Shown here piece by piece: positions 1,133-38,804 of a DNA stretch of 64,000 nucleotides (positions are counted from its first letter, which is position 1; each line of letters begins with the position of its first letter). Below the pieces are notes generated by a model. That model did not search any database. It was not told the DNA's origin and was given only the letters and a program-made list of their open reading frames with translations. A program made the position numbers and the translations under genes. The DNA is from a virus (taxonomy: Duplodnaviria; Caudoviricetes): IMG/VR virus record IMGVR_UViG_3300032007_000071, positions 10,074-74,073 of that record, one strand, 5' to 3'.

Positions 1133-1375
1133 GGTCGCAAGCTCCCTTGTTGTGGGGTCGCAGAGCTCCCTTGTTGTTGGGCGCTTCGCTTGAAATTTTA
1201 TTTAGAATTTATATTTATAATTTAATTTAAAATTTTCCTGCCCACCACTTCCTGCGGATAGGGTAATTCTACGCGAACACGTACCGCGCCAGCCAATTAT
1301 AAATATAATTCTAAATAACAATTATAAATATAATTTCAAGCGAAGCGCCCCCATAATCAGGGAGCGGAGCGACCC
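1133..1375 (-). repeat. GNA-hairpin/AT-arm palindromic element, copy 1 (2 arms)
   Basis: gggcgcttcgcttgaaatt at 1179 and aatttcaagcgaagcgccc ending 1350 are inverted repeats around phased AT units and a GC core; flanking ggtcgcaagctcccttg motifs. Confidence 0.9.
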
Positions 1376-1377
1376 GG

Positions 1378-2550
1378 CTATATTCCTTTCGGCATCTTCA
1401 CGCCGTAGTGCTCTCCCGCCTTGACAATGCTCTTAGTCACGCGTCCGCCGAGGGCGATGAGCTCCTTGATGTTCAGTCCCCACTGCTTCTTGCGCTCCGG
1501 GGTCGCCTCCGGCCGTGGGTCACGCAGCCACTTCTGGAGATAGGAGATGCGCTTTTTCTTCTCCTCGTCGGTCATCGTCTTTTCGGACTCCGCCTTCTTA
1601 TGGTGCGACCGCTTCGGCTTTGTTGTTCCCTTTTTGTCGTCGGTGGGGATTGTTACCTTCGGCTTCGGGTCTGCGACCTTCCCCGTCTCGGGATCGACGA
1701 GATGCGCCATGCCGAGGTCGTCGAGGACCACATGCCCCGTGGCCACTACCCTCCCCCACTCGTCATCCAGTTCCTTGCGGAGGGCGGCGATGCGGTTGTC
1801 GATCTTCACGGCAGCTTTCGCCCACCGCTCCCGTTCGGTGGCTGTTGATTGAGGATCGTCGAGGAGCAACCGCATGTTAGTGCGTGCCGTGCCGAGGTCG
1901 TTCATCAGAGCACCATATTGTGCGGCCCGCTTCTGGGTGTCCTCGGGAAGGAGATGGATATACTGGTCGATATGCTTCGGCCGGGGCACGATGGTATTGA
2001 GGTCGGTCGTCAACAACTTGGTGTTTTGTGCCACTTTCTTGGTGTCCTGTGACAGATTATTGTCACTCGGTGACGGATTTTCGTCTTTTGCCAGCTTCTC
2101 TTTCGGGGGCCGTCCCCTACCCCTCCGTTTGGGTTCCACTTCTGGAGACGGCTTTTCTGCATCCGACGGCACCGGCTTCTGGGGCGCTACCGACTCTGGG
2201 GTGGTCGTGAGCTTCGGTCGGAACGTCGTGAGCACGTCGATGATATGGAGCACACTCCGCTTCACCGACTTCTTATAGATGGCTTCGGGGAGCCAGGTGT
2301 CGGTGGCTCTCGCAAAGGACGTCATCAGTTTCACGCCCTTCATGAAGGCCTCCTGCTCCTCGGCGCTCCACGCCCCGCTCATCTGCATCACGTCCTGCAC
2401 CCTCGCCAGTGGTTCCCCGGTCTTGGGGACGAGGATCGGTGCCTGACGTTTCAGCCACTCCCCTACCCTTTCGGCCAACTTCAGACGCTCGTCTTCGGTC
2501 ATGTTGTCGTAGCGTTTCAGCCACTCCCCTACCGTTATTCTTTTGATCAT
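1378..2550 (-). CDS. hypothetical phage protein with Pro-rich linker and AT-hook-like RRGRGRPPK motif
   Basis: 390 aa ORF preceded by a minus-strand TAnnTTTG promoter. Confidence 0.75.
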   Translation of the reverse strand: MIKRITVGEWLKRYDNMTEDERLKLAERVGEWLKRQAPILVPKTGEPLARVQDVMQMSGAWSAEEQEAFMKGVKLMTSFARATDTWLPEAIYKKSVKRSVLHIIDVLTTFRPKLTTTPESVAPQKPVPSDAEKPSPEVEPKRRGRGRPPKEKLAKDENPSPSDNNLSQDTKKVAQNTKLLTTDLNTIVPRPKHIDQYIHLLPEDTQKRAAQYGALMNDLGTARTNMRLLLDDPQSTATERERWAKAAVKIDNRIAALRKELDDEWGRVVATGHVVLDDLGMAHLVDPETGKVADPKPKVTIPTDDKKGTTKPKRSHHKKAESEKTMTDEEKKKRISYLQKWLRDPRPEATPERKKQWGLNIKELIALGGRVTKSIVKAGEHYGVKMPKGI

Positions 2551-2579
2551 ATATAAATAAGGTATTTGTTTTTTTCAGA

Positions 2580-2587
2580 CAAAGATA
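2580..2587 (-). promoter_or_regulatory. Bacteroidetes sigma-A -7 box (TATCTTTG) for the leftward operon
   Basis: caaagata on the + strand, about 30 nt upstream of the ORF 1378..2550 start. Confidence 0.6.
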
Positions 2588-2698
2588 ATGTAGGGTGGAT
2601 AAGAAGTCAAGGGCAAGGGGGAGCGTGCCTGACGGAGGCGGTCTGTTAATCTTGCTTAAATAATTGATTAATTGTTTGCTTGTTTGCTTAGATACTCG

Positions 2699-2706
2699 TA
2701 TCTTTG
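2699..2706 (+). promoter_or_regulatory. Bacteroidetes sigma-A -7 box (TATCTTTG) for parA
   Basis: matches the TAnnTTTG consensus, with TTTG motifs upstream. Confidence 0.65.
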
Positions 2707-2774
2707 CCACAGCTACAACAAAAAGAGCGATGGGTATCGCTCAACGATTATTCATTTTTAAAAGCTACAATAAT

Positions 2775-3638
2775 ATGGTAAAGAAACAGCGTACTCACGA
2801 GCTGCGTCATATCGTGGCCGTGTCCAACAACAAAGGTGGGGCAGGCAAGACCTCTACCGTGCTCAACCTTGCGTCAGCCATCTCCCGTCGTGTGGAGGGT
2901 TATCGGGTGCTCGTCATCGACTGCGATCCGCAGCACAACCTCTCCCAACTGCTGAAATGGGAGGACAAGATGGAACTCGACGGCAACCCCACCATTTTTA
3001 ATGCACTCTGCAACCAACAGGGGCTCCCCGTTTATAAGGCACAAAACGGACTTTACTTCACCCCGGCCAGTATGAAGCTCAACGGCATCGACGTCTTCCT
3101 CTCGCAGCTGCCCAACCCTAACAAAGCACTCCAGGAACTCTTGGAACGGCCTATCGACGACCGTACCACAACCCTACTCGGTGACACCATCGGGGAAAAG
3201 CAGTCGGTGCTCTCCCCTACCATCGCCGATAGCTTCGACTTCGTGTTCCTCGACACACAGCCTGCCATGAGCCGCATGACCTACAACGCCCTTTATGCGG
3301 CCGACGGGGTTATCATCACGACCGAGCTCGAGGAGACAAGTATCAGTGGTATGGTCAACGTGGCCGTTGCTGCCGGGAAAGTGATTGCCGATACCGGGAA
3401 ACTCAATATACAAGGAATCCTGATCACCAAGTCGGATGCCCGCTTGCGTATTGCCAAACACTACGAACCGCAGATCCGCCAGTCGTTTTGTGAGACGTTC
3501 CGCACCGTCATCCGTCAGAGCAAGGACATATCGGAGAGTCGTGCCCTGCATGAGGACGTGTTTACTTCTTATGCCGGTGGACGTGCCGCCGAGGACTTCA
3601 TCGCCCTGGCCAACGAGTATCTGGAGAAGTTTGCTTAA
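2775..3638 (+). CDS. parA: ParA family partition ATPase
   Basis: deviant Walker A NNKGGAGKT, VIDCDPQHN, FVFLDTQP; start moved to the ATG at 2775 after an AT-rich leader. Confidence 0.92.
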   Translation: MVKKQRTHELRHIVAVSNNKGGAGKTSTVLNLASAISRRVEGYRVLVIDCDPQHNLSQLLKWEDKMELDGNPTIFNALCNQQGLPVYKAQNGLYFTPASMKLNGIDVFLSQLPNPNKALQELLERPIDDRTTTLLGDTIGEKQSVLSPTIADSFDFVFLDTQPAMSRMTYNALYAADGVIITTELEETSISGMVNVAVAAGKVIADTGKLNIQGILITKSDARLRIAKHYEPQIRQSFCETFRTVIRQSKDISESRALHEDVFTSYAGGRAAEDFIALANEYLEKFA

Positions 3639-3672
3639 CCACTTGGTTACTGCATTACTTGTTTAAGCATAC

Positions 3673-3840
3673 AAGCAATACATTTATCAAGTAGAAAAGC
3701 AATACATTTATCAAGTAGAAAAGCAATACATTTATACAGTAGACAAGCAATACATTTATCAAGTAGAAAAGCAAAACATTTATCAAGTAGAAAAGCAATA
3801 CATTTATCAAGTAGAAAAGCAATACATTTATCAAGTAAGA
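3673..3840 (+). repeat. 7 x 24-bp tandem repeat AAGCAATACATTTATCAAGTAGAA, putative centromere array 1
   Basis: units start at 3673, 3697, 3721, 3745, 3769, 3793, 3817, directly after parA. Confidence 0.9.
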
Positions 3841-3907
3841 AAGCAAGCAATTGCCCAATTAGTAAAGCAATTAATTGTATAAGCACAACATTAAACAAGC
3901 AGACAAT

Positions 3908-4351
3908 ATGGCAAAGAAAGACAAATTCGCACAGCTCCATGCACAAGGTGGGGGGATGCTTGGTTCGGTGGGATCGTTCCAGAATCTCGCGGCAACCGTG
4001 GCAGCTATCGACCAGCAGGAGCAGCAGGAGGAAAAAGAGAACGCACATACGGAGAAAGCCACTACTCCTTCCCGGGCTAAAGAGGAGAAGCAAACGGAAA
4101 GCGCTGTCGAGGAAGAACGCTTCATGCGACTTCCCAACCCGAAGATTCCATTGACGGAATACAACCTTGTAAGCAACTATTGCAACTCGCTTCCGAACAT
4201 GACAAGGCAGGACTTCGTGGAGCTGGCCATTCTCGAAAAACTCTATAAGGACTGCGGACTGCCCAAAGCACAGTTTGATAAACGTTACAAGGAGATACGC
4301 AACCGTCCGCCACGCGGACACCGGAAAGGAACTAAGCAATCAAGCAAATAA
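3908..4351 (+). CDS. putative centromere-binding protein (ribbon-helix-helix-like), type Ib partition partner
   Basis: downstream of parA; disordered N-terminus; C-terminal PKIPLTEYNLVSNYCNSLPNMTRQDFVELAILEKL fits a strand-helix-helix pattern. Confidence 0.55.
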   Translation: MAKKDKFAQLHAQGGGMLGSVGSFQNLAATVAAIDQQEQQEEKENAHTEKATTPSRAKEEKQTESAVEEERFMRLPNPKIPLTEYNLVSNYCNSLPNMTRQDFVELAILEKLYKDCGLPKAQFDKRYKEIRNRPPRGHRKGTKQSSK

Positions 4352-4354
4352 TGT

Positions 4355-4546
4355 ATTGCTTGATAAATCTAACAAGGCAATGCTTGGATAAATCTAACAA
4401 GGAAATGCTTGGATAAGCTAACAAGGCATTGCTTTAACAAGCTAACAAGACATTGCTTGAATAATCTAACAAGGTAATGCTTGAACAAGCTAACAATACA
4501 TTGCTTGAACAATACATTGCTTTGTTAAGCTAACAAGGCATTGCTT
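4355..4546 (-). repeat. degenerate ~24-bp tandem array with inverted core (A[T/A]TGCTT), putative centromere array 2
   Basis: cores at 4355, 4379, 4404, 4428, 4452, 4476, 4500, 4516, 4540; ATTGCTT is the reverse complement of the AAGCAAT core of array 1. Confidence 0.8.
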
Positions 4547-4574
4547 GAATAATTGGATAAGTAATCAATGAACC

Positions 4575-5024
4575 ATGGAGAACAAAGAGAAACCATCTGC
4601 AACAAGCAGAGAAGGGAAGGATGAGATCACGGAGATGGTCAAAAATTTCGAGCAAGTGTTGGAAGGGCAGGACACCACAACGTTGGCACTCGAACACGAA
4701 CTCGTGCGTACAATAGGGGAAAGGATACAAGAGAGGCTCGCACGGATCAAGCAACAGACCTCCGAGGAGACGAGCAACGATCAAGAGTCTGTTGACGGGA
4801 CAGCCGAGAAAGCGGTAGGGGCGTTGTGCTACCTGCCGAAATCCATTCATCGACTGGCCACACGCTATGCCGACGACCATGATGTCACCGCCAAGCGGTT
4901 CTTCTTCGAGACGATGCTGATCGGACTGGAACAGCAGGGGATCATCACCCACGAGCAGCACCTTCAGGCCCTCACGCTCCCCAACGAGTATGGCTGGAAG
5001 GGACGTGGCAGTAAGAAACCGTAA
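4575..5024 (+). CDS. second putative ribbon-helix-helix DNA-binding protein
   Basis: 149 aa; ALCYLPKSIHRLATRYADDHDVTAKRFFFETMLIGL is RHH-like; preceded by array 2. Confidence 0.45.
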   Translation: MENKEKPSATSREGKDEITEMVKNFEQVLEGQDTTTLALEHELVRTIGERIQERLARIKQQTSEETSNDQESVDGTAEKAVGALCYLPKSIHRLATRYADDHDVTAKRFFFETMLIGLEQQGIITHEQHLQALTLPNEYGWKGRGSKKP

Positions 5025-5032
5025 GGCAATAA

Positions 5033-5080
5033 CTCATCAACTTATCAACCAACTCAATAACTCAACAACTCATAAACTCA
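5033..5080 (+). repeat. degenerate 8-9-mer AACTCA(A/T) microsatellite-like run
   Basis: aactcatcaacttatcaaccaactcaataactcaacaactcataaactcaaaa upstream of the lipoprotein gene. Confidence 0.6.
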
Positions 5081-5087
5081 AAAAAAC

Positions 5088-5522
5088 ATGAAACACACAA
5101 AATTATTCTCAATCCTCATGCTCTTCTTCCTGGGCATGATGGCCATCAGCTTCTCAGCATGCAGCAGCAGCGACGATGACGTGGATCCGACACAGCGGTA
5201 CAGGAGCCAAATCCTTGGCGAGTGGTATTGCGACAACATTGAATATCGGTTCGAGCCGGATGGCACCGGATGGCGTAACTGCGGGGACATCATTGCCGAC
5301 TTCAAGTACACCATCTATGGACAGGGCGTAAGTATGCGTCTGTTCACCTATGTCAACACTGCCACGGGAAGCATCTGGAAAGATGATGAGGGCGATGACG
5401 CTGTCTATAATCCCGAGCAGAACACCATGCGCATCGAAGGACGTATTTTTACGCGTCAGAAGCCGACACCCAAACCGACCACGTCCACAGAGGAACCGGC
5501 CGACACCGTGGTGACGGAGTGA
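5088..5522 (+). CDS. lipoprotein, possibly lipocalin-like beta fold
   Basis: signal peptide ending FSAC followed by the acidic SSSDDD typical of Bacteroidetes surface lipoproteins; ILGEW motif. Confidence 0.75.
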   Translation: MKHTKLFSILMLFFLGMMAISFSACSSSDDDVDPTQRYRSQILGEWYCDNIEYRFEPDGTGWRNCGDIIADFKYTIYGQGVSMRLFTYVNTATGSIWKDDEGDDAVYNPEQNTMRIEGRIFTRQKPTPKPTTSTEEPADTVVTE

Positions 5523-5543
5523 TTGTGTAAATTGTAATAGGGT

Positions 5544-5576
5544 AGGGGGCACCGATCATCGGCGCCCCCTTTTTTT
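5544..5576 (+). terminator. intrinsic terminator
   Basis: agggggcaccgatcatcggcgcccccttttttt hairpin plus T-tract. Confidence 0.75.
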
Positions 5577-5579
5577 GTT

Positions 5580-6089
5580 GGTCGCTCCGCTTGAAATTAT
5601 ACTTAAAATTTGGCCTTAAAATTTTACTTAAAATTTGGCTGGCGCGACGAGGGTCGGTCGCAAGCTCCCTTGGTGGGGCGCTCCGCTTGAAATTCTATTT
5701 ATAATTTATATTTAAAATTCTATTTATAATGGCTGGCGCGATGATTGTTGGTCGCAAGCTCCCTTGTTGATGGGCGCTCCGCTTGAAATTTGCTTTATAA
5801 TTTATATTTATAATTTTATTTAGAATTGGCTGGCGCGATGATTGATCGCCTACGGATCCGGGGTTGCCTTCATCGTAGCACCTGTACAAGACGCATGAAA
5901 GGGTGGGCAGGAAAATTTTAAATCAAATTCTAAATAAAAATTATAAATACAATTTCAAGCGAAGCGCCCCGAAGCAGCGCGAAGCGCAAAACAATCGGTG
6001 GCTGGAAAATTTTAAGTCAAATTTTAAGTAAGAATTTTAAGTAAAATTTCAAGCACGAAGTGCGCCCCTAACAAGGGAGCTTGCGACCC
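5580..6089 (+). repeat. GNA-hairpin/AT-arm palindromic element, copy 2 (3 direct + 2 inverted arms)
   Basis: three gc(t/c)ccgcttgaaatt...ggctggcgcg arms, core ending cgcatgaaagggtgggcagg, two inverted arms ending ttcaagcgaagc and ttcaagcacgaagtgc. Confidence 0.92.
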
Positions 6090-6100
6090 GACCATCCGAC

Positions 6101-6714
6101 ACTTCCGTTTTTGTCGGGATCTCCCTGGGAAAAGAGAGACTTCCGTTTTTGTCGGGAAATCAAGACCTATATATTTGTCCCCCAAGGCTATAAATCTGTC
6201 TTCAACGGGAAGTTATAAGAATGTCCCCAGGTTCACATTCTCGTTATCAGTCTGATAATAGCATAGTTACGTATTTGTCGTGGAAGTTGTGTTTTTCCGA
6301 CCGCTTTGATTATCAATGAGTTATAGTTTTCCGACAAAAACGGAACTAAAAAAATCTCTTTATTTATTTTATTTATTACTATATATATTATATATTTATA
6401 GGTACGCGTAACTTGCTGATAATCAAAGGTTAGCCGTGTAGTTTACCGACAAAACCGTAGCTTTTTACCGACAAAAGCGGAAGTATTTACCGACAAAAGC
6501 GGAGCTTTTCTCCGACAAAAGCGGAAGTATTTGCCGACAAAAACGGAGGTCTATTCCGACAAAAACGGAGGTGGGGACAGATTCAGAGTTTTCTGTCCTT
6601 GCAGTACGACGCATTTCTCCGACAAGAAAGTAACTTGATTAAAAAGTTTCAAGTGTTAATATTTTGCAAGTTGCTGAAAATAAACAAGAAAACACTTGTC
6701 AGTTTACCGACAAA
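6101..6714 (+). other. plasmid-type replication origin (iterons, AT-rich unwinding region)
   Basis: CCGACAAAA(A/G)CGGA iterons: inverted copies at 6101 and 6139, one at 6331, six in phase from 6446, partial copies at 6620 and 6707; AT-only stretch about 6347-6400; immediately upstream of the rep gene. Confidence 0.88.
6446..6571 (+). repeat. six iterons at 22-bp spacing
   Basis: ccgac starts at 6446, 6468, 6490, 6512, 6534, 6556. Confidence 0.92.
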
Positions 6715-6718
6715 TTAG

Positions 6719-6726
6719 TAACTTTG
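6719..6726 (+). promoter_or_regulatory. -7 box TAACTTTG of the rep promoter, next to a partial iteron (probable autorepression)
   Basis: consensus match; ccgacaaa at 6707-6714 lies within the promoter. Confidence 0.65.
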
Positions 6727-6789
6727 CCGTGCAATAACACCAATGAAGCTACAACACGTTGGTGTTCACCACATTAAAAAGCTACTATT

Positions 6790-7785
6790 ATGGCAAGAAA
6801 AACTCGCAAGGCCGAGCAGCTCAAACAAGAGATTGTCAACAGTGTGCCTGTAGAACAGCGTGAGATGATTACGCAGCCAATCACATTCACCTATCTCAAT
6901 GGGGAAATGACGATGTTACAGACGCGCATACAGACGATGATCATGGAGAAGCTGCAAGAGCGTATCGCCAATGCTCTTCAGAAGAGAGCGAAGGGTGGAT
7001 TCACCGGGGAGCTGTTCACGGATGACGACTTCGCGCCGCTACCAAACGGACACACGAAGTACCTCACGTTTGAGGTGAAATACTCCGAGTTGGGCGTGGA
7101 GCCTTCACACTATGAGGACATCGACAAAGCAGCACTCGCTATGCAGTCGATTATCCACTCAAAAGAGTTGACCGACGAACATGGAAAGAAATACGTCGAG
7201 TACACGGTGGTTTTTGACAAGGTAACGATCCCCGTCAAGACAAAGGGTAGGGTAGAGCGACGTGACAGCATCAAGCTGCGGATGTTGCCGGAAACGGCAC
7301 ATGACCTGTTCAACATCATTCCCTACCACCGCTATCTCAAAGATGCTGTATTCCTCTTTAGCAGTGGTTATTCGGGGCGTATATATCTTCTCATCAATGC
7401 CAACAAACGACTCGGCACTTGGAAAATCTCCTATGAGAAACTTCGCAAGATTTTGCTCGCAAGTTATGACAATGACACAAAGCAGCTGTCAGTAGAGAAA
7501 TACCCGGAGGTCTATGATTTCAAGCGTCGTGTGCTCGACGTGGCCAAAAAGGAGATTGATAAAGCCGCCGACCGCGTGGACTGCACCTTTGACTATGAGC
7601 TGGAATACCCTCATGGCAAGCACCGTGGAACACCTGAATACGTCGTGTTCCATATCCACATGACCGACTTGGGAAATCGCATCCTCCAGAAGAAGCTCGA
7701 CTGCAAGCCGGCAGAGGCCATAGAGATAAAGGAGGAAAACGAACCAAAGAATACGAACCCTATAAATGATATGAGCAAATGGTAA
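6790..7785 (+). CDS. repA: replication initiator protein (Rep_3/RepA family)
   Basis: ITQP..TY, SGYSGRIYLLI, FKRRVLDVAKKEID, FDYELEY motifs of winged-helix initiators; adjacent iterons. Confidence 0.85.
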   Translation: MARKTRKAEQLKQEIVNSVPVEQREMITQPITFTYLNGEMTMLQTRIQTMIMEKLQERIANALQKRAKGGFTGELFTDDDFAPLPNGHTKYLTFEVKYSELGVEPSHYEDIDKAALAMQSIIHSKELTDEHGKKYVEYTVVFDKVTIPVKTKGRVERRDSIKLRMLPETAHDLFNIIPYHRYLKDAVFLFSSGYSGRIYLLINANKRLGTWKISYEKLRKILLASYDNDTKQLSVEKYPEVYDFKRRVLDVAKKEIDKAADRVDCTFDYELEYPHGKHRGTPEYVVFHIHMTDLGNRILQKKLDCKPAEAIEIKEENEPKNTNPINDMSKW

Positions 7786-8678
7786 AAAAGCAAACCCCCA
7801 ATTACCCCCAGCTCTGGCAGCAGTGCCTGGCAACCATCAGAAGCCAATACCCCAAGGGGGAGAAATACGACCACTGGTTCAGTGTGTGGTTCGGTGACGT
7901 GGCACTCGATGCCTACGATCCCGACAAACGGCAGCTGCGGTTACGGGTGCCGTCACGCTACGTCTATGAGTTCCTTGAAAGCTATATGCTCAAACCGCTC
8001 AGAGCGGCCCTACAAGCCACGTTCGGGGAGCAGGTGGCACTGACGTACCGCATCATGCCGCAAGCCCCGTCATTTGCGGATATGGCCGCTTATCTGCAAC
8101 ATCAGTCGGGTGGGGGAGCACGACGCGACAACCGCATCCATCTCGACAATGCTAAGGAACGGCTCGAGGACGGTCTGCGCTATTTCCTGAAAGATAAGCC
8201 GATGGAGTGGGTGAGCGGCTACGAGGACGTGGTGAAGTTCCTCACCGACAACGACCGCCGGGGACTGCTCATCGTGGGGACACCGGGACTTGGCAAGTCG
8301 CTCATCGCCTGTCGCATCCTCCCCGTACTACTCGCCAACGGCGTGAAGACGCCGCCCGTGGTGAGGGCCACCGACCTGCGGAAGCGGTTAGAGGAACTCA
8401 AACGCGAGCGGGTGGTCATCATCGACGACCTCGGCAAGGAGCCCCGCAAACACTATGGCGACACCGATCAGTCTTTCTTCGAGCTCTGCGACAATGCCGA
8501 GCGCACGGGGGCGATCCTGATCATCACCACGAATCTCGCTACCACGCCCACCGACGACCCCCGCTACTCCGATGACATCGAGACACGCTACGGAGAAGCC
8601 GTGCTCAGTCGGCTGAAGGCCATCACGCACGTCGCTGTCTTTGAGGGCAACGGACTGAGGGAGGAGGAGAAGAAGTAG
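7779..8678 (+). CDS. DnaA N-terminal domain fused to a DnaC/IstB-like AAA+ ATPase (putative helicase loader)
   Basis: N-terminal LWQQCLATIRSQ...WF...LRVPSRYVYEFLE resembles DnaA domain I; Walker A GTPGLGKS, Walker B IIDDLGKE. Confidence 0.75.
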   Translation: MVKKQTPNYPQLWQQCLATIRSQYPKGEKYDHWFSVWFGDVALDAYDPDKRQLRLRVPSRYVYEFLESYMLKPLRAALQATFGEQVALTYRIMPQAPSFADMAAYLQHQSGGGARRDNRIHLDNAKERLEDGLRYFLKDKPMEWVSGYEDVVKFLTDNDRRGLLIVGTPGLGKSLIACRILPVLLANGVKTPPVVRATDLRKRLEELKRERVVIIDDLGKEPRKHYGDTDQSFFELCDNAERTGAILIITTNLATTPTDDPRYSDDIETRYGEAVLSRLKAITHVAVFEGNGLREEEKK

Positions 8679-8683
8679 AAGAC

Positions 8684-9274
8684 CTATTCGCTTCGTTCCC
8701 GGCAACGTTTCTGACGACGCTGCCATTCCCGCCGCATCGCTTCTACATACACGTCGTCGGTGCGGTATTCTTTGCAGAACGCCTCGATCATCTCCACCTG
8801 GGCATAACGCTCCCCCTTGTGCGCTTGCTGGTACTCCTTGCTGAAGACCCCTACGGCCTGCCAGAACGCCTCCCGGATGAGCCGTAGGAGCGATGCTGCC
8901 TGCTGCTGGCCAAAGCTCGTGTCACTGTCCCACGGATGTACCGTGCCGTCCTCGTACATGGCATACGGGGGACAGGCCACGGGGAGGTACTGGACAAACA
9001 GCTCCCGCGTGACGCCGAATACCTTCTCCACGCTCTGCGCGTCCATCTCCAGCCCTACCTCCAGGGCAGCGTGCCAGGTATCGCAGATCACGTTACCGGG
9101 CACGACATCAGGGTGGAGCTCATCGTCGGCAGGCATCTCCATCACCGCTTGAACTCCATCTATATTCTGCACTTCTATCACCGGGTTATCTTTCACCCGT
9201 TTCGGCCCGCCCAGTGTCCTGCGTGCCCATCCTCGCATATAATCTGTTATTTTAAGCCAGCAAATCGGTTCCAT
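8684..9274 (-). CDS. hypothetical phage protein
   Basis: 196 aa, convergent with the ATPase gene, own TACCTTTG promoter at 9338-9345. Confidence 0.75.
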   Translation of the reverse strand: MEPICWLKITDYMRGWARRTLGGPKRVKDNPVIEVQNIDGVQAVMEMPADDELHPDVVPGNVICDTWHAALEVGLEMDAQSVEKVFGVTRELFVQYLPVACPPYAMYEDGTVHPWDSDTSFGQQQAASLLRLIREAFWQAVGVFSKEYQQAHKGERYAQVEMIEAFCKEYRTDDVYVEAMRREWQRRQKRCRERSE

Positions 9275-9337
9275 TCTTAGTCACTCTTTGGTCAGTCTGG
9301 AAAGGCTATAAGCGTATAACTTACTCATTTCCAACTA

Positions 9338-9345
9338 CAAAGGTA
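9338..9345 (-). promoter_or_regulatory. -7 box TACCTTTG
   Basis: caaaggta on the + strand upstream of ORF 8684..9274. Confidence 0.55.
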
Positions 9346-9974
9346 CAAAATATTCCGTCAACATCCAAGTGCTCAGCCATCTTTAATCGTTTGAATCGTC
9401 ACTCAAAATCCACTCAAACGAAAAGGCTACTGATTATCAACGAGTTACAACGAGCGTCGAGAAAAATGGCTATTTCTGTGAGTGGCTCTTGAATTTATGG
9501 CCCAGAGTTCTCAAAGACTTAACTACTTAGTTATCAGCCAAATAGAAATCCGTTGCGCACGAAGGGAGAGAAATACCCCTATTTTTGGTGAAACTCCTCT
9601 CTTCTATTTTTTAATCACACACATGCGGCAAATTCCCCGCACCCCAATCAAAATAAATAATAGGTTATAAAAATAAGAAAAGAAGTTGATTATCAGATAG
9701 TTATATATTATATAATATATTACGTCGTAAAATTTTAAATTAAAATTAGAATATATAAGTAATACTTATACTAAATAACCGCGCAGATTTTTTGTAAATC
9801 GTTGAAAACCAACGAGTTACAAGCGGCAAAACGGAATCCGTCAATTCAAGACAAACCGCAAAGCGATGATGTAACACGCTGATAAACAAACTATTGCACG
9901 TTTGAACGGCAACTTAAAACGAGGATGGGTGCAATTAAAACGGCTGCATTGTTGGCAGTCTCCCGGTTTCTTCG

Positions 9975-9982
9975 TACCTTTG
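9975..9982 (+). promoter_or_regulatory. -7 box TACCTTTG upstream of the spanin-like gene
   Basis: consensus match. Confidence 0.5.
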
Positions 9983-10220
9983 CAGTAGGTAATCACAGCT
10001 TTGAATCTTCAATAGGCATTTGTCTTTGGCTCGAAAGCATGAAGTATATACCGGATGGCCGAGTACTATCCGTCACGCGTCGCCGCTCCCTTGTTGTAGC
10101 TTTTGGGGGAAGGCGGCGCGTTCTTCTTTGATAGCCATTGATGTTTTTGTGCCACATGTATGCGCTTGCCCTTGACTTCAAGGCGCTCGCACCCTATCTT
10201 AGCGACAAAAAACAGAATTT

Positions 10221-10703
10221 ATGGTAAGACAGAATCCCTATTATAACAACGACCCACGGCCGTTCCTCCTCCTGCTCTATGCGATGCTGGTGATGATGTT
10301 CCTCGCCCTGTTCGGTGGCTGCACCACCACCCGTTACGTCCAGGTGCCGGTGAGACATACCGACACGCTCCGTCTCGTCCATGAGCGGCATGACAGCGTA
10401 TGGCTGCACGACAGTATCTACCAGCGTGAGTACATGCGTGGCGATACCGTCTACCGCTACATCGACCGATGGCACAACCAGTACATCAAGCAGCTCCTCC
10501 GTGACACCGCCTATATCTCCCGTCGTGACACCGTGCCGGTGCCTTACCCCGTGGAGAAGAAGGTCCCCGCCCAGCTCGCGTGGCATCAGCAGGCACGGCT
10601 CTGGCTGGCCAACCTCGTCCTCGTGGCACTCGCCGTGGCTGCCGGGGTATGGATCATCAGAAAACGGAGCTGGTGGCTGGAGAAGATCCGGAAGCTGCTG
10701 TAA
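10221..10703 (+). CDS. spanin-like lipoprotein (N-terminal lipobox, C-terminal transmembrane helix)
   Basis: LFGGC lipobox, beta-rich TDT/HDS repeats, hydrophobic LWLANLVLVALAVAAGVWII followed by a basic tail. Confidence 0.6.
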   Translation: MVRQNPYYNNDPRPFLLLLYAMLVMMFLALFGGCTTTRYVQVPVRHTDTLRLVHERHDSVWLHDSIYQREYMRGDTVYRYIDRWHNQYIKQLLRDTAYISRRDTVPVPYPVEKKVPAQLAWHQQARLWLANLVLVALAVAAGVWIIRKRSWWLEKIRKLL

Positions 10704-10717
10704 GCCAGTTCCCCATC

Positions 10718-11151
10718 GGTCGCAGTGCTCCCTTATTTGGGGGCGCACTTCGTGCTTGAAATTTTACTTAAAATTTGGCCTTAAAATTTTACTTAAAATT
10801 TGGCTGGCGCGATGATGGGCGGTCGCAGAGCTCCCTTATTTGGGGGCGCTCCGCTTGAAATTATATTTAAAATTTATATTTAAAATTTTATTTAGAATTG
10901 GCTGGCGCGGTGCTTGTTTCCGCATGGACCCTATCCGCATGAAAGGGTGGCAGGAAAATTTTAAATTCAATTCTAAATAATAATTCTAAATATAATTTCA
11001 AGCGAAGCGACCAGAAGCAGCGCGAAGCGCTCCAAGCAATCGGTGGGCAGGAAAATTTTAAGTCAAATTTTAAGTAAGAATTTTAAGTAAAATTTTAAGC
11101 GGAGCGACCCCATAAAAAGCGAAGCGCCCATCAGCAAGGGAGCTTGCGACC
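10718..11151 (+). repeat. GNA-hairpin/AT-arm palindromic element, copy 3 (2 + 2 arms)
   Basis: arms at about 10743 and 10845, core with ccctatccgcatgaaagggtggcagg, inverted arms ending about 11010 and 11110. Confidence 0.92.
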
Positions 11152-11186
11152 GACAAAACGAATACGAAAACAAAATATAGACAACT

Positions 11187-11456
11187 ATGAAGCAACTTGC
11201 ATTATCCGAGCTCCGGCGTGTCGCCGAGCGGTTCACAGGAGCTCACGAGCGCATCCCCTGGCGGGTGTGGTACGTCGCCGCCAACAACGGCGATGTCATC
11301 CGTGGCGAGGAGGTCATCACCCTCAGTGTCGATGTGCCGCCCAACTGCCCCGGTGCCTACCCCTCCCGACTGGTACAGTTCACCGCCAGCGGCCAGACCC
11401 GCCGCCTCCGTGACTGCTGTATACTAAGGGCTGACGACTACGAGTTGGTCGTGTGA
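11187..11456 (+). CDS. conserved hypothetical Bacteroidales phage protein
   Basis: 89 aa, acaactATG start context, RLVQF..SGQTRRLRDCCI motif. Confidence 0.7.
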   Translation: MKQLALSELRRVAERFTGAHERIPWRVWYVAANNGDVIRGEEVITLSVDVPPNCPGAYPSRLVQFTASGQTRRLRDCCILRADDYELVV

Positions 11457-11461
11457 TGGAG

Positions 11462-11510
11462 TTAGGAGCTATTAGGAGTTAGGAGATAGGAGTTAGGAGT
11501 TAGGAGTTAA
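11462..11510 (+). repeat. 7-mer tandem repeat (TTAGGAG)n
   Basis: about six imperfect copies between two genes. Confidence 0.8.
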
Positions 11511-11545
11511 TTTGGCACACACGATTAAAAACAATTAATAATATC

Positions 11546-12046
11546 ATGGAACCCAAGAAGTATTTACATAAACTCGCGCAAGCCGTGAGCCGACGCAGTG
11601 GCATCAGTATCAACACCTGCTTGGTGGTACTCCCTGCCCTCTTCGACGAGATGCGCTACATGCTCTGTGAGGGCGACTACCGTTGCGTGACGGTGGAGAG
11701 CTTCGGCACCCTCACCGTCAAGGAGCGGCCCCGCCGTCACTACCGCCGCCTCTTCCCCGACGGCACGAGTCAGCTCATCGAACTGCCACCGAAGCTCATC
11801 GTGAAGTTTCTCCCCACCGCCAACCTGCGGAGGGAGGTGGAGTCCTCCAGTTTCGATCCCACCCGCCAGTCGTTCGTCATCCATCCCGACGATCATGGCA
11901 TCCGCACGCGGAAGGCGGTGAAGAGTAAGGCGAAGAAGCACGACCTGTTCTTTGCCATCGACGGCGTGGTGAAACGTGACGACCCGGTGCCCGACCACCC
12001 CAAGCGCATCCGTATCATCCGTGGAAAGGACAGCTCAGAGGAATAA
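11546..12046 (+). CDS. HU/IHF family DNA-binding protein with C-terminal extension
   Basis: LAQAVSRRSGIS, VTVESFGTLTVKERPRR, KLIVKFLPTANLR. Confidence 0.8.
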   Translation: MEPKKYLHKLAQAVSRRSGISINTCLVVLPALFDEMRYMLCEGDYRCVTVESFGTLTVKERPRRHYRRLFPDGTSQLIELPPKLIVKFLPTANLRREVESSSFDPTRQSFVIHPDDHGIRTRKAVKSKAKKHDLFFAIDGVVKRDDPVPDHPKRIRIIRGKDSSEE

Positions 12047-12128
12047 GCGGTCTTTGGCACACAGCTTTCACGATGATTAAGCGAACGGGGCACGGAGCGT
12101 CCGAGCAGTCAGTAAGGCTGAATTTTCA

Positions 12129-12192
12129 AATCAGTACTACTGATTTCCAGCAATCAGTACTACTGTTTTCTCGCAATCAGTACTACTGATTT
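12129..12192. repeat. 3 x 23-bp repeat with quasi-palindromic core AATCAGTACTACTGATT
   Basis: units at 12129, 12152, 12175. Confidence 0.8.
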
Positions 12193-12218
12193 CTCGGGGC
12201 CCCTTTCGGGGGTTGGGT

Positions 12219-12640
12219 GGGGCGCACTTCGTGCTTGAAATTTTACTTAAAATTTGGACTTAAAATTTTACTTAAAATTTTACTGCCACCGATTGCTCTG
12301 GGCGCTTCGCGCTGCTTCCCTGGGTTCGGGGCGCTTCGCTTGAAATTGGATTTATAATTTTTATTTAGAATTTGATTTAAAATTTTCCTGCCCACCCTTT
12401 CCTACGGATAGGCGGATAGCCGAACTGGATGATCCTATGGGAACGCGTACCGCGCCATCCAAATTTTAAGTAAAATTTTAAGTAAGAATTTTAAGTAAAA
12501 TTTTGAGCGGAGCGACCATACAGCAAGGGAGCTTGCGACCGACAATCATCGCTCCAGCCAATTCTAAATAAAATTATAAATAGAAATTCTAAATAAAATT
12601 TCAAGCGGAGCGCCCAAAAAAAAGAGGAAGCGGAGCGACC
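12219..12640 (-). repeat. GNA-hairpin/AT-arm palindromic element, copy 4 (2 + 2 arms, inverted relative to copies 2 and 3)
   Basis: same arms and core as copies 2 and 3 in reverse-complement order. Confidence 0.92.
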
Positions 12641-12695
12641 GGAATATAGAAAACACTTTTTGTACCACATAATTAACAATTAAACACAAAAGACT

Positions 12696-13232
12696 ATGGC
12701 TACCATCAAGTATCAAGTCAAGGAGAACAATACCATCGGTACTCACTCCTTCTATGCACAAGCAGTCAGTTACAGCACCCTCGACATCTCCGACCTCGCG
12801 TCAGAGGTGGCCGAGAACATCGGCATCTCGCCGTCTACCGTGAAGATGGTGCTCGAACGTTACGCTGTCGTGGCAGAGCGCAGCATCATGCGTGGCCACC
12901 GTGTGAAGCTCGGCGACCTCCTCACCTTCTATCCGCAGATCAGTGCCTCCGTCAAGGATGAGCTCGACAAGGAGGGACACGTCGTGAAGAAAGCCACAGC
13001 CGACATGCTGAAGATCTCCGGCTGTAAGAGCACCATCGGTGCCACCATCTCCCAGGCGGTGCAGCAGCAGTTCGCCGCCAAGGTGTCGTGGAAGCGTGCC
13101 GGCGAAGACGATGCTGTGACGAAGGACGACGGCACAACGGGTGGCAGCACGCCTGGCGCATCCGGCAGTTCGTCGGAGGGTGGCAGCGCTTCCGGTTCGG
13201 GCGACTCAGGTTCTTACGGAACCAACGAGTGA
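12696..13232 (+). CDS. HU-domain (Bacteroidetes histone-like) DNA-binding protein
   Basis: FYAQAVSYSTLDISDLASEVAE...HRVKLGDLLTFYP, Gly/Ser-rich tail typical of this family. Confidence 0.85.
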   Translation: MATIKYQVKENNTIGTHSFYAQAVSYSTLDISDLASEVAENIGISPSTVKMVLERYAVVAERSIMRGHRVKLGDLLTFYPQISASVKDELDKEGHVVKKATADMLKISGCKSTIGATISQAVQQQFAAKVSWKRAGEDDAVTKDDGTTGGSTPGASGSSSEGGSASGSGDSGSYGTNE

Positions 13233-13259
13233 CGACAGGGGCTAAGACCCAATTCTATT

Positions 13260-13293
13260 AAGAGGACTGCTTAGCGCAACAGTCCTCTTTTTT
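13260..13293 (+). terminator. intrinsic terminator
   Basis: aagaggactg...cagtcctcttttttt. Confidence 0.75.
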
Positions 13294-13427
13294 ATAGATA
13301 TAGGGTGAAATAAAAACACATATAAAATGTTAAATTTGTAGGCTTGAAGAAAATTTCTCCCGAAATTGTTTGGAGGTGAAATAAAAACACATTACCTTTG
13401 CAGCGAACAATTAAAGCTACAACAATT

Positions 13428-13976: not shown

Positions 13977-14039
13977 GAGACACCTTATTATATATATGTA
14001 TTCGCAAAGGTAATATATACTTGTTTTACTTTTGATAAT

Positions 14040-14080
14040 AAACGGCAGTCTGCAATAAATGCGGATTGCCGTTTGTTTTT
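14040..14080 (+). terminator. intrinsic terminator
   Basis: aaacggcagtctgca...tgcggattgccgttt plus T-tract. Confidence 0.65.
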
Positions 14081-14215
14081 ATTATTTTCTCCCTTAATTC
14101 GCTATATATGCGCAAAAAAGATAAAAAAAAAATTTGAATCGAAATATTTACCCCGCGCCTCGCTAAGCGGTGTGGGGCGTCCGGCGGGTTCTGGCGTCCT
14201 CCGCAAATATGCAAA

Positions 14216-15164: not shown

Positions 15165-15196
15165 GCTAATTGTTTCACTTTCAAAATTTTATAACT

Positions 15197-23407: not shown

Positions 23408-23419
23408 GACTTTATTTTT

Positions 23420-32968: not shown

Positions 32969-33154
32969 CCTATACTAACTCCGGGAAGAAGATATACCAT
33001 CTTTTCGGAGAATGTATACCATCTTCTGGGAGAAGGTATACCAACTTTTGGAAGGGGTTAACCTCGACCGATGCTCCAAGTTAACTTCGAGCAGTGGTCC
33101 AAGTATACCTCGACCGATGCCCCAGGTATACCTCGACTATCGGTCGAGGTATAC
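32969..33154. repeat. phased 21-23-bp degenerate array centred on TATAC/TTAAC cores
   Basis: cores at 32971, 32993, 33015, 33037, 33058, 33081, 33104, 33127, 33150. Confidence 0.75.
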
Positions 33155-35110: not shown

Positions 35111-35127
35111 CTAAAATCTGAACAACT

Positions 35128-35451
35128 ATGGCAAAACTTACAAAGTTCTATTTCGATGAGCTTCCTAAAGAGCAGCAGCGTCGAGTCACGGAATCTTTCC
35201 TCGATAACGGTGGCAGTGAAGACTACTTGAATGGAAAGTTCTCTCGTGAGGAAGTCAATGTGGAGGTAGTGATTGACGAGGATGGCACGCTCTATGACTT
35301 CCGAGTATTCGACCCATTCCAGCTTGTAGATAAAGAGTTATACGTCTATGCAGACGGCTGGTCCAACTGGTTGCTCGAGTATCGTGACAACGCCGGACAC
35401 GACGTGGACGAAATCCTCGATGAGTTCGACGGAGTGCCACAGGACGACTAA
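35128..35451 (+). CDS. acidic hypothetical protein, tandem paralog A
   Basis: MAKLTKFYFDEL...EFDGVPQDD. Confidence 0.75.
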   Translation: MAKLTKFYFDELPKEQQRRVTESFLDNGGSEDYLNGKFSREEVNVEVVIDEDGTLYDFRVFDPFQLVDKELYVYADGWSNWLLEYRDNAGHDVDEILDEFDGVPQDD

Positions 35452-35515
35452 CAAACAGGGCGTGGGGAAGCCCCGCCTAAAACAACACAACTAACAACTA
35501 ACAAAGAAAGCAACT

Positions 35516-35851
35516 ATGGCAAAACTTTCAAAGTTCTATTTCGATGAGCTGAATAAAGATCAGCAGTGTCGAGTCATGATTGATTTCCGCGATAACGGTG
35601 GAAATCTCGACTACCTGAATGGAAAGTTCTCTCGCTCGGTCGTCAGTGCAGAGGTAGTCGTGGACGAGGATTTCGTCCTTTACGATATTCGGGTCTTTGA
35701 TCCGTATCATCATGTAAAGAATGAGGGAGGAACCCCGATCTATATCGGGCCCGTTGGGTGGTCCAACTGGCTGTTCGAGTATCGTGACAACGCCGGGCAC
35801 GACGTGGACGAGATCCTCGACGAGTTCGGCGGAGTGCCGCAGGACGACTAA
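35516..35851 (+). CDS. acidic hypothetical protein, tandem paralog B
   Basis: MAKLSKFYFDEL...EFGGVPQDD; 3' end nearly identical to paralog A at DNA level. Confidence 0.75.
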   Translation: MAKLSKFYFDELNKDQQCRVMIDFRDNGGNLDYLNGKFSRSVVSAEVVVDEDFVLYDIRVFDPYHHVKNEGGTPIYIGPVGWSNWLFEYRDNAGHDVDEILDEFGGVPQDD

Positions 35852-35911
35852 CAAACAGGGCGGGGGAAACCCCGCCACTATTACAACCAATAACCACCAA
35901 AACATACGATT

Positions 35912-36797: not shown

Positions 36798-36799
36798 CT

Positions 36800-37081
36800 A
36801 TGTATCAAGCATCCGTTTCAAACCAGCACGGTAATTATGTTGTGACCGTCTGCATGGACGACATTCACGGCTTCCGTCCTTTTGCCAACTTCGGTTGGAA
36901 TCAAGGGGCAGCTATGGAGACCCGCGACCTGATTAATCGTGGTCGTATCGAATACGAGCGGGTATGCGCCAAGATCCGCCTATACGACCCAAAGGTGCTC
37001 TACGGTTATCCTCGTTATCGTGGCAACCGCATCGAATTCACACGCCGTAGAAAATACGTCGGGGAGACCTTCGAAGAATAA
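36800..37081 (+). CDS. hypothetical protein
   Basis: start moved to the ATG at 36800; followed by a terminator. Confidence 0.6.
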   Translation: MYQASVSNQHGNYVVTVCMDDIHGFRPFANFGWNQGAAMETRDLINRGRIEYERVCAKIRLYDPKVLYGYPRYRGNRIEFTRRRKYVGETFEE

Positions 37082-37104
37082 GCAATCAATACGAGCTTTA
37101 TCTG

Positions 37105-37135
37105 CCTCGTCCGAAAATCGGGCGAGGATTTTTTT
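37105..37135 (+). terminator. intrinsic terminator
   Basis: cctcgtccg/cgggcgagg plus T-tract. Confidence 0.65.
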
Positions 37136-37159
37136 ATCATCAACCTAAAATCAAAAGCT

Positions 37160-38059
37160 ATGAGAAATCTGTTTTCTTTCGCAGCCGTGGCACTCGTCTG
37201 TGCCGCTTGTACCAATCAGACCGAACTGGCAGAGACCAGTGAAGCATCAGTAGAGAAGCAGCGGGTGACGCTCTCTTTCTCGCCCTTCACGATGACCCCC
37301 ATGGGAGCCAAGGCAAGAGTGACAACCCGTGCTACGGTGCCGGTCAGTGACGTGGTGAACCGCCTCGACGTGTGGCTGATGGAGGGAGACTCCACCACGG
37401 CCCTCACGAAACGTGAGGTGGTAGCGGAAAGTCACCAGACCGCCACAGACGATGGCTTCGGCTCGTTGTCGCTCACACTCGACAAGAGCAAGACCTACAC
37501 CCTCTATGCCATCGGCCACAAGGAGAGTGCGCCCACGACACTCTCCACGGGGGTGGTATCGTTCCCGGACACGAAGAAGTCGCAGACGCTCTATTATTCT
37601 ACTACCTTCACGCCCGCCACAACAACGACCCTTGAATGTAAGATGCTTCGGGCGGTGGGTATGTTCCGGGTCGTCATCGAAGACGAGATACCCTCTGAGG
37701 TGAAGAAGATTTCTATCACCGCGGACGGAACGCCGACACAGTGGAGCTTCCCACAACATGCGGGCATCACGCCGACGGACACCTACTCCATATCGTGGAC
37801 GAGTTTCAAGCACGAGGCGGACGGCACCATGTCGTTTAGTATCTATATCTTAAGCAGTGACACGGAGAAACGCTATTCCATCACGGTCTCTGCCTATGGC
37901 GCCGACGGAGCCGTGTTGAAGACCCGCACATTCACGGACGTGCCTATCCGCAACAACTACCGCACGATCTACACCGGCCGCTTCTTTAAGGACACGCCCT
38001 TTTCCTCTAAGTTTCGGGTGGAGGAAGACTGGCTGGAATATGACGCAGTAGCGTATTAA
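37160..38059 (+). CDS. FimB/Mfa2-family (type V pilus anchor-like) lipoprotein
   Basis: lipobox VCAAC, TTRA processing-like site, GTYTLYAIGH-like strand, C-terminal FRVEEDW motif. Confidence 0.7.
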   Translation: MRNLFSFAAVALVCAACTNQTELAETSEASVEKQRVTLSFSPFTMTPMGAKARVTTRATVPVSDVVNRLDVWLMEGDSTTALTKREVVAESHQTATDDGFGSLSLTLDKSKTYTLYAIGHKESAPTTLSTGVVSFPDTKKSQTLYYSTTFTPATTTTLECKMLRAVGMFRVVIEDEIPSEVKKISITADGTPTQWSFPQHAGITPTDTYSISWTSFKHEADGTMSFSIYILSSDTEKRYSITVSAYGADGAVLKTRTFTDVPIRNNYRTIYTGRFFKDTPFSSKFRVEEDWLEYDAVAY

Positions 38060-38066
38060 TCTCATC

Positions 38067-38804
38067 GGTCGCTTCGCCCCCTTCCTTTTGGGCGCTACGC
38101 TTGAAATTTTACTTAAAATTTCTACTTAAAATTTTACTTAAAATTTGGCTGACGCGACGATTGTTGGTCGCTTCGCTTGAAATTTTACTTAAAATTCTTA
38201 CTTAAAATTTTACTTAAAATTCCATGCGGAACCGGATGCAGTAGGGAGCGGAGCGACTGCTTATCGTTTTCTTAAATTTAATTCGCCATGAATGTAATAG
38301 AAGAACATAACGCTCCGTTGGAACCGATGCGGGTCATCACGGGCGTTGCAATGAAAGTACATGCAAAATTCCGTTCCGGTCTGTTGGAATCCGCTTATGA
38401 GGCAGCAATGGAATACTTGCTGAAGAAAGGCGGCCATGTAGTAGAGCGGCAGAAAGAGCTGCCCATATTTTGGGACGATGTTCGCTTGAATCAAACTTAC
38501 CGTATGGACTTGGTGATTGACGGAGTGATTGTAGAGCTCAAATCCGTCAGCCATACGACCGATGCACACCTTCGCCAACTGTGGAACTACATGCGTCTTA
38601 CTCATACGGAGTATGGTATGCTTATCAATTTTGGTGCTGAGCATCTGTTCTCTGTGTGGTTTCGTCGTGATCCGATTACTAACCGCATCGAGCGGGTAAA
38701 GCTCCTTTAGCGGTTTGCGCCAGCCAAATTTTAAGTAAAATTTTAAGTAAGAATTTTAAGTAAAATTTCAAGCGAAGCGCCCCGTAACAAGGGAGCTTGC
38801 GACC
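38067..38804 (+). mobile_element. GNA-hairpin/AT-arm element, copy 7, enclosing a GxxExxY nuclease gene (candidate autonomous copy)
   Basis: left arms at about 38092 and 38170, right inverted arm 38718-38782 is a near-perfect reverse complement of the left arms; mobility is inferred. Confidence 0.55.
38288..38710 (+). CDS. GxxExxY protein (PD-(D/E)XK nuclease-like)
   Basis: SGLLESAY signature, YRMDLVIDGVIVELKSV, QLWNYM...GMLINFG. Confidence 0.9.
   Translation: MNVIEEHNAPLEPMRVITGVAMKVHAKFRSGLLESAYEAAMEYLLKKGGHVVERQKELPIFWDDVRLNQTYRMDLVIDGVIVELKSVSHTTDAHLRQLWNYMRLTHTEYGMLINFGAEHLFSVWFRRDPITNRIERVKLL

Follow-up and report, generated by a model that had tools for sequence, protein, structure and literature searches.

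The window analysed here, a stretch of 64,000 nucleotides (nt) from the 74-kb IMG/VR virus record IMGVR_UViG_3300032007_000071 (positions 10,074 to 74,073), carries seven intergenic loci built from palindromic, AT-rich arms. On balance these loci probably represent a dispersed hairpin-repeat family linked with a small GxxExxY nuclease of the PD-(D/E)xK superfamily, in which locus 7 is the full unit and the other six loci are gene-less copies. The central clue to the arm family is the gene inside locus 7: nuclease genes of the GxxExxY type and arms move as companions, along with copies that lack the gene. Judging from its genes (ParA, Rep3, Pcf and Ard genes together with a head maturation protease), the window seems to belong to a phage-plasmid of Prevotella in the bovine rumen.

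Association of arms with GxxExxY nuclease genes

Arms of the window type directly adjoin related GxxExxY genes of 63-78% identity in five other records (L128, L129, L040/L072 and L017). L128 is the syntenic site in G006, a complete relative of 101.7 kb, and has the same arrangement as locus 7, and L129 is another viral contig, in which the upstream gene is different from that of locus 7. A third context for an arm-bordered related gene is found in L040 and in L072, a homologous contig of a metagenome-assembled genome (MAG), and L017 is a 122-kb contig that starts inside the GxxExxY gene. The PF13366 gene was present in all five arm-bearing viral records tested.

The flanks of 30 GxxExxY genes from a sample of 201 Prevotellaceae genomes were studied. 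Nearly all of these genes lie between inverted sets of two to four tandem units of 9-12 nt, often behind a GC mini-hairpin, and the unit sequence is specific to each clade of the gene. At least four inverted 8-mers were common to both flanks at 15 of the 30 loci, compared with 1 of 43 genes in their neighbourhood (Mann-Whitney p = 2e-6). Moreover, when co-variation was scored only on pairs of loci with unrelated outer flanks, arm 8-mers were shared by 80% of the pairs with a protein identity of at least 70%, versus 1-6% of those below 55% (Spearman p = 7e-8). The clade at 53-61% identity has arms of the same layout, but their units are GAAATC and NNNCAAATC; this arm type occurs in five of the six sampled genomes with the cognate gene clade versus 3 of the 195 without it (Fisher p = 1.3e-7), and the genomes that have it also hold gene-less copies at other sites. 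The profile of the window arms detected no arms at the host GxxExxY loci, and the other arm types emerged from direct reading of the flanks. Flank sharing, co-variation and co-occurrence therefore all indicate that gene and arms travel together.

A separate feature was seen in genome G003 (L167, 1900-2260), where the last ~27 nt of the GxxExxY gene (25 of them as an exact repeat) are duplicated before the second palindrome.

The nuclease gene of locus 7

The gene inside locus 7 (38288-38710, plus strand) encodes a protein of 140 amino acids (aa). PF13366, the PD-(D/E)xK family PDDEXK_3 (E = 1.3e-30; 106.5 bits, cut-off 22), and TIGR04256 (E = 2.1e-32; 111.9 bits, cut-off 35) are the sole Pfam and NCBIfam matches of this open reading frame (ORF), which gave no match to a GIY-YIG nuclease. 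In an alignment the residues G31, E34, Y37, D74, E83 and K85 are intact in the locus 7 protein and invariant across 34 homologues. A single-sequence AlphaFold model was unusable, with a predicted local distance difference test score (pLDDT) of 39, and the alignment-based AF2 model (pLDDT 95.4) was taken instead; it bears a weak resemblance in fold to Cas4, lambda exonuclease, Hjc and small restriction-endonuclease-like proteins. No relevant solved structure was found by a sequence search of the PDB. With invariant catalytic residues and a confident fold model, the nuclease looks active. A superfamily survey from 2012 lists PF13366/GxxExxY as of function unknown (PMC3424549), and our literature search found no paper on GxxExxY function or on repeat arms of GxxExxY genes.

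Locus 7 (38067-38804, plus strand) starts 8 nt past the stop codon of the gene at 37160-38059. The arms A 38092 and 38168 (both plus) lie upstream of the nuclease gene and A 38780 (minus) lies downstream, 7 nt past its stop codon.

Turnover of the elements between relatives

The elements change faster than the genes around them. The complete relative G006 is at ~73% identity; over aligned segments its nucleotide identity to the window ranges from 65 to 88%, with broad synteny. Loci 5 and 7 are filled in both and loci 1-4 have no counterpart in G006, so that identical presence at all seven loci, which the preliminary description of this DNA had named as an argument for a fixed regulatory role, is not what the relatives show. 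At locus 1 the orthologous junction is empty in G006, and the region surrounding loci 3 and 4 is missing from it. The clean contrast is found at locus 2, where both sequences have a terminator-like hairpin and then the CCGACACTTCCG box, and the window adds a 510-bp element between the two. Differences in the other direction were also observed: in G006 and L177 an element separates ArdA from ArdC, as against 31 bp in the window, and G006 has a solo arm 3 nt past another stop codon.

Closer relatives were available as six metagenome sequences (L172-L177), whose ArdC genes are 98-100% identical to each other. The element behind ArdC, orthologous to locus 6, is present in five of the six, and L175 retains a 32-bp remnant, a hybrid head in which two outer head halves are fused at a shared TTCG. 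The site of locus 5 is filled in all relatives, with three different alleles. Two relatives have a full element in an interval of 223 bp, and two others a minimal palindrome in an interval of 87-88 bp. The third allele, shared by one relative and G006, is an element of another subfamily in a 222-bp interval with unchanged flanks; this element is only 65% identical and comes nearest to the post-ArdC element. Alignment of orthologous sites, as had been proposed, thus reveals loci that are not fixed, with near-identical relatives differing by deletion, shortening and replacement. A proposed check for target-site duplications turned out negative: no direct repeat was visible at the seven window junctions or in the comparisons of filled and empty sites, most of which are too diverged for base-exact borders.

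Two other observations concern the same sites. In G006 the last ~37 nt of ArdC are duplicated around an insertion of ~1.9 kb (99730-99766 and 101605-101641; L134 and L135), and the post-ArdC element follows the second copy of the ArdC end and spans the contig ends; the terminal repeat reported for G006 may be a circular overlap inside an arm. Public contigs stop at the arms, and the repeat arms account for assembly breaks at element sites. Contig joints linking 5740 with 12544, 23494 with 5894 and 10742 with 10841 were disregarded, being best explained by cross-mapping of arms between loci at 88% likeness.

Structure of the arms and of the seven loci

Seven loci with about 22 arms of modular design had been described beforehand, all of them intergenic, and head-motif, regular-expression and profile searches returned the same counts. 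A looser regular expression and an nhmmer profile, applied to the 74-kb record, detected 22 arms of ~65 bp. Every one of them falls within the seven intergenic loci (1133-38804); positions 38805-64000 and the 10 kb of contig that precede the window are free of arms. The arm head GCGCYYCGCTTGAAATT gave 18 matches at up to two mismatches, versus 0.06 expected from shuffles. An arm is composed, in order, of GG with a short GC head, TTGAAATT, three AT-rich units and an inner end of A-type or B-type. The short head is mostly (G/T)CGC-TYC-GC, and a lengthened form, GCAC-TTC-GTGC, occurs three times. The AT-rich units have a period of 12-13 nt (autocorrelation 0.61-0.63 at lags 12-13). Twelve inner ends are A-type (GGCTGGCGCG-like), nine are B-type (TTCCTGCCCACC-like) and that of the arm at 38168 is odd.

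From locus 1 to locus 7 the numbers of arms are 2, 5, 4, 4, 2, 2 and 3. The earlier picture of A and B arms facing each other around a core, in copies of two to five arms, was accurate for the six gene-less loci, in which one to three A arms stand opposite one or two B arms with a core of 40-70 bp between them. The shared core motif was likewise recovered, with CGCATGAAAGGGT exact in loci 2, 3, 5 and 6 and in variant forms in loci 1 and 4. Spacers and outer ends of the form GGTCGC..GCTCCC occur twelve times, always inside the loci, and look like truncated heads. Terminal inverted repeats are present, formed by the element ends GGTCGC...GCGACC together with the 65-bp inverted arms, and whole elements fold as long hairpins far above shuffled sequence (z = -7.2 to -10.8).

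On the outward-reading strand the heads are GC-GAA-GC, GC-GGA-GC or GC-GTA-GC, and pairing is kept in the lengthened heads (GCAC/GTGC, GCCGC/GCGGC, GCC/GGC and GGGC/GCCC). The motif GCGNAGC is known as an extraordinarily stable DNA mini-hairpin (PMC13037366). Heads with a GNA loop, which would point to a structure in single-stranded DNA, are taken here as a lead and not as a result, because an automatic tally could not separate the registers GC-GAA-GC and GCG-AAG-CGC of the short head, and the GNA register rests on the lengthened variants only.

Locus 1 (1133-1375, minus strand) has the arms B 1181-1246 (plus) and A 1285-1348 (minus) around its core, with outer heads of the form GGTCGC..CTCCC, two on the left and one on the right, and begins 3 nt past the stop codon of the minus-strand gene 1378-2550. 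Locus 2 (5580-6089, plus) possesses the arms A 5582, A 5678, A 5774, B 5967 (minus) and B 6065 (minus) and the CGCATGAAAGGGT core at 5892; it starts 58 nt past a stop codon and is preceded by the terminator-like hairpin with its T-run at 5546-5576. In locus 3 (10718-11151, plus), with A 10743, A 10846, B 11010 (minus) and B 11107 (minus), the first head is of the lengthened form GCAC-TTC-GTGC. The order is reversed in locus 4 (12219-12640, minus), which lies between two HU-like genes and is composed of B 12222, B 12331, A 12515 (minus) and A 12613 (minus); it starts 173 nt past a stop codon, and a GC hairpin read by eye at ~12195-12212 precedes it. Locus 5 (19337-19540, plus; A 19362 and B 19537, the latter minus) begins 8 nt past the stop codon of the gene 18307-19329, upstream of a PcfK-like gene, and locus 6 (23420-23617, plus; A 23423 and B 23589, the latter minus) begins 13 nt past the ArdC stop codon.

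According to the ORF calls, loci 1, 3, 5, 6 and 7 start 3-15 nt past the upstream stop codon, in agreement with the earlier count of five loci within ~15 nt of a stop, the upstream ORF at locus 3 being uncertain. The A arm also comes first relative to the direction of the flanking gene in six of the seven loci, as had been noted (the exception is locus 4), a ratio that is not significant alone. Orientation relative to the Rep3 origin or to GC skew gave a pattern no clearer than orientation relative to transcription.

Copies in host genomes

A scan of one genome per prokaryotic species, with the head and first unit as query and the arm profile as confirmation of hits, identified arms in about a dozen rumen MAGs of Prevotellaceae/Bacteroidales (from cattle, sheep, goat and roe deer), frequently close to the end of a contig. 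The family is hence not specific to the phage, as the proposed profile search beyond it could establish. Five host genomes have 5-16 heads each, a density about fifty times sparser than in the window, though MAGs undercount repeats. The host copies are chromosomal, with genes for TatC, V-ATPase subunits, glutathione peroxidase, an ECF sigma factor and an ATP synthase alpha/beta-family subunit among their neighbours. Most of them are simple palindromes of ~100 bp without a core. In RUG849 and relatives (L069, L087, L090 and L124), palindromes are also seen amid runs of TCACTTTTCAC, AAATCCTTTAAATCC and GAAGAATGAAGAAT, as larger mosaics.

Among viruses, a first IMG/VR scan with a 17-mer head gave 45 hits, most of them chance matches in unrelated genes and the real ones L017, L019 and L040. 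Two candidates of a second IMG/VR scan, L054 and L057, were rejected as chance matches, and a megablast of positions 1-20000 against the phage collection gave no match.

Proposed mechanism and alternative explanations

In the account that we favour, the full unit would be represented by locus 7, with the nuclease gene between inverted arms, and a gene-less unit would comprise one or more A arms, a short core and one or more B arms, sometimes multiplied in tandem like bacterial interspersed mosaic elements (BIMEs). The family is found at very high density on phage-plasmids of rumen Prevotella and also on the chromosomes of the likely hosts, and it occupies transcribed intergenic space just past stop codons. 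The nuclease may recognise its own arm type, with the arrays of three 12-13-nt units as putative binding sites and the GC-GNA-GC mini-hairpin as a structure that could form in single-stranded or extruded DNA. Once the arms are cut, repair or copying from another member of the family would let elements spread, convert or vanish. The elements are probably passengers on the phage-plasmid, and any effect on transcript ends would be secondary. It is doubtful that the phage-plasmid nuclease recognises the unit arrays and mini-hairpins of its arms in single-stranded DNA and copies or converts gene-less elements in trans, on the phage-plasmid itself and, during its residence as a plasmid, into the host chromosome, which would amount to a virus-shuttled system resembling REPINs but driven by a PD-(D/E)xK nuclease.

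Several observations weigh against a family driven by its nuclease. Most host genomes with window-type arms have no close cognate gene: in G001, G004 and G005, which are incomplete MAGs, the cognate is of at most 36% identity or absent. The gene in G003 has arms of one type on its upstream side and palindromes of the window type on its downstream side, so that arms and gene do not strictly form a single inseparable whole. No fresh insertion at an empty but otherwise identical site was caught among the near-identical genomes, which show one loss, one shortening and one replacement. The loss and the shortening can be explained by replication slippage of a long palindrome, with no dedicated enzyme, and the deletion junction of L175 shares the TTCG microhomology. 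The ArdA gene is missing from L172-L176 (~5918-5957; compare 21448-22284 in the window) and present in L177 and G006, with the element following it. The gain at the ArdA/ArdC junction may be recombination of a segment, not insertion, because the element comes together with the ArdA gene. Public contigs on 4000-23999 gave no usable evidence of empty alleles or RNA ends. To our knowledge, a PD-(D/E)xK core of 140 aa has no known transposase chemistry.

Some of the same points would fit palindromes that form an independent family, similar to repetitive extragenic palindromic (REP) sequences and spread by a host process, with the GxxExxY gene as a secondary, homing-type invader at the palindrome centre or as a passenger. 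The mixed arm types around one gene in G003 and the host genomes with arms and no close cognate gene are of this kind; moreover, copies without the gene are far more numerous than those with it, the gene occupies precisely the place of the core, and element-for-element replacement at one site fits homing or gene conversion between family members. We nevertheless regard this explanation as unlikely. Gene and arm type stay linked at unrelated loci, the arm type co-occurs with its cognate gene clade, and no other candidate enzyme emerged, the Y1 transposase family of RAYTs (REP-associated tyrosine transposases; PF01797) not being found in the phage-plasmids G000 and G006 or in the host genomes G001, G002 and G003, and the control genomes giving hits. 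Recognition of the arms by the nuclease would still be required. The arms might instead be sites of a single-strand-specific nuclease that controls incoming or transferring DNA, like NTS/SRM and SsnA in Neisseria, in which case they would not be self-mobile and would spread by ordinary recombination. For such a role there is a precedent, a nuclease gene that lies between copies of its own hairpin repeat and co-occurs with it across genomes (PMC11893778); the outward-strand heads match a stable mini-hairpin motif, and all seven loci sit in the plasmid-like half of the window, near the ArdA, ArdC, PcfJ and PcfK genes. The nuclease superfamily differs, however, the copies number tens per genome and not hundreds, and a purely static role leaves the rapid presence/absence changes and the subfamily replacement at fixed sites unexplained, so that we hold this explanation to be improbable.

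Selected cis-regulatory parts, either hairpins at transcript ends (terminators, or sites for RNase III or stability) or, in a transferred leading region, single-strand promoters or priming sites, would account for starts 3-15 nt past the stop codon at five loci, for like orientation at six of seven and for the very strong folding; a mini-hairpin with a T-rich tract at three arm heads was also scored as terminator-like by a simple scan. Yet direct reading shows A-runs, not T-runs, behind the whole palindromes, terminator-like sites are in total no more frequent than in shuffles, and locus 2 is already preceded by a terminator-like hairpin with a T-run; a terminator was rejected as the primary role. 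The promoter was likewise rejected, since the Bacteroidota -7 motif TAnnTTTG has no match in any arm and just one within a locus, on the opposite strand of the GxxExxY ORF, the expectation by length being ~1.7. G006 does without four of the loci, the same family flanks housekeeping genes of hosts, and linkage to the nuclease gene is left unexplained, which makes a regulatory origin very improbable.

Comparison with known repeat families

The preliminary description had suggested a mobile or regulatory family similar to REP sequences or to MITEs (miniature inverted-repeat transposable elements). A dispersed, non-fixed and REP-like family is what we find, and a classical MITE is not, as neither a target-site duplication was seen nor a transposase partner found among the annotated genes. 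Correia-type elements are bounded by inverted repeats, intergenic and probably co-transcribed, like the arm family. According to a survey from 2024, MITEs are common to phages and their hosts, Prevotella phages included (PMC11602168); these also share with the arms their inverted-repeat bounds, intergenic position, probable co-transcription and occurrence in a virus and a host of one genus or family. Differences from MITEs are the lack of visible duplications, the arms made of unit arrays and the nuclease gene in the full copy. No transposase partner was recognised among the annotated genes (Y1 was searched and not found; DDE families were not searched systematically), and the only gene-bearing relative of the gene-less copies encodes the 140-aa PD-(D/E)xK nuclease.

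The arm family resembles both REP/BIME (REPIN) sequences with RAYTs (PMC2817692, PMC3116915, PMC3733652) and NTS/SRM with Ssn in layout and genomic behaviour, yet it fails the defining enzyme test of each. Like REP sequences, the arms are short extragenic palindromic repeats, single or in mosaics of alternating orientation, and an enzyme gene of low copy number lies between inverted copies of the repeat type that belongs to it; the type of repeat co-occurs and co-varies with the clade of the enzyme, and target-site duplications are not seen. Locus 7 encodes a PD-(D/E)xK protein of the GxxExxY family, whereas RAYTs are HUH/Y1 transposases. Furthermore, the arms are ~65 bp with GGTCGC/GCGNAGC heads and three units, in contrast to REP sequences of 20-40 bp with GTAG or CGTC tags, and copies number tens, not hundreds, with a phage-plasmid as the densest carrier. 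In Ssn systems a small stand-alone nuclease gene is also framed on both sides by a dispersed hairpin repeat, gene and repeat are associated across genomes and a single-strand structure is implied; 42% of Ssn homologues have their own repeat on both sides, and cleavage and a role in transformation have been shown for Ssn (PMC11893778). Ssn has a GIY-YIG fold, unlike the nuclease of locus 7, and the NTS repeat is one short hairpin present hundreds of times. Elements of the IS200/IS605 type and the gene-less PATE (PMC6006769) share hairpin ends, absence of target-site duplications, strand-oriented insertion and an implied single-strand intermediate with the arm family, which has neither TnpA (Y1) nor TnpB and whose ends are long, symmetric and multi-unit.

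No match was obtained at the Rfam gathering thresholds, and the literature on GxxExxY/PDDEXK_3 and on Prevotella MITEs gave no description of the family, in line with the initial impression that it had not been catalogued. As far as the searched literature goes, in which the PMC11602168 catalogue was not compared, the arm family is undescribed in print. Since PF13366/GxxExxY is a common family of small nucleases, its association with arms offers a testable clue to its role. The system is compact, with one gene and, on the same replicon, 22 arms that are candidate substrates and have inner ends of two types, and near-identical relatives supply natural alleles (full, swapped, shortened and deleted elements). 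Should the nuclease act on the arms, it would represent a third enzyme superfamily in the design of a nuclease with its own repeat, after RAYT and Ssn, and temperate phage-plasmids would be dense reservoirs of elements common to their hosts. The shared repeat family also links the virus to rumen Prevotellaceae.

Replicon context and other repeats

The genes of the window include those for ParA, a Rep3-like initiator with iterons, two HU-like proteins, PcfK, PcfJ, ArdA and ArdC, a 1662-aa SNF2-type protein and, further on, a head maturation protease and a primase-like protein; no tRNA genes were found in the window. Near-identical sequence occurs in the bovine gut metagenomes of several studies, according to the list of runs.

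Other repeats were observed along the window. Behind the ParA gene (2664-3638), 24-nt tandem repeats form two arrays, at 3617-3919 and 4342-4576, which are probably partition sites. The gene for the Rep3-like initiator (6790-7785) is preceded by 22-nt iterons at 6442-6573, and the palindromic CCGACACTTCCG...TGTCGG box directly to the right of locus 2 is kept in G006, whose iteron sequence differs. At least eight copies of a 21-nt tandem repeat are present at 14188-14396, where one metagenome run has 3-nt deletions at regular 21-nt steps, and a 23-nt tandem repeat lies at 33061-33152. Tandem duplications of ~400-450 bp and 76-91% identity at 35123-35873 and 57525-58435 look like duplicated small genes. 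Finally, the segment 11337-12003, around the first HU-like gene, had very high contig depth in all four runs, with many loose ends at 11472 and 11508, and is probably a conserved segment common to other organisms.

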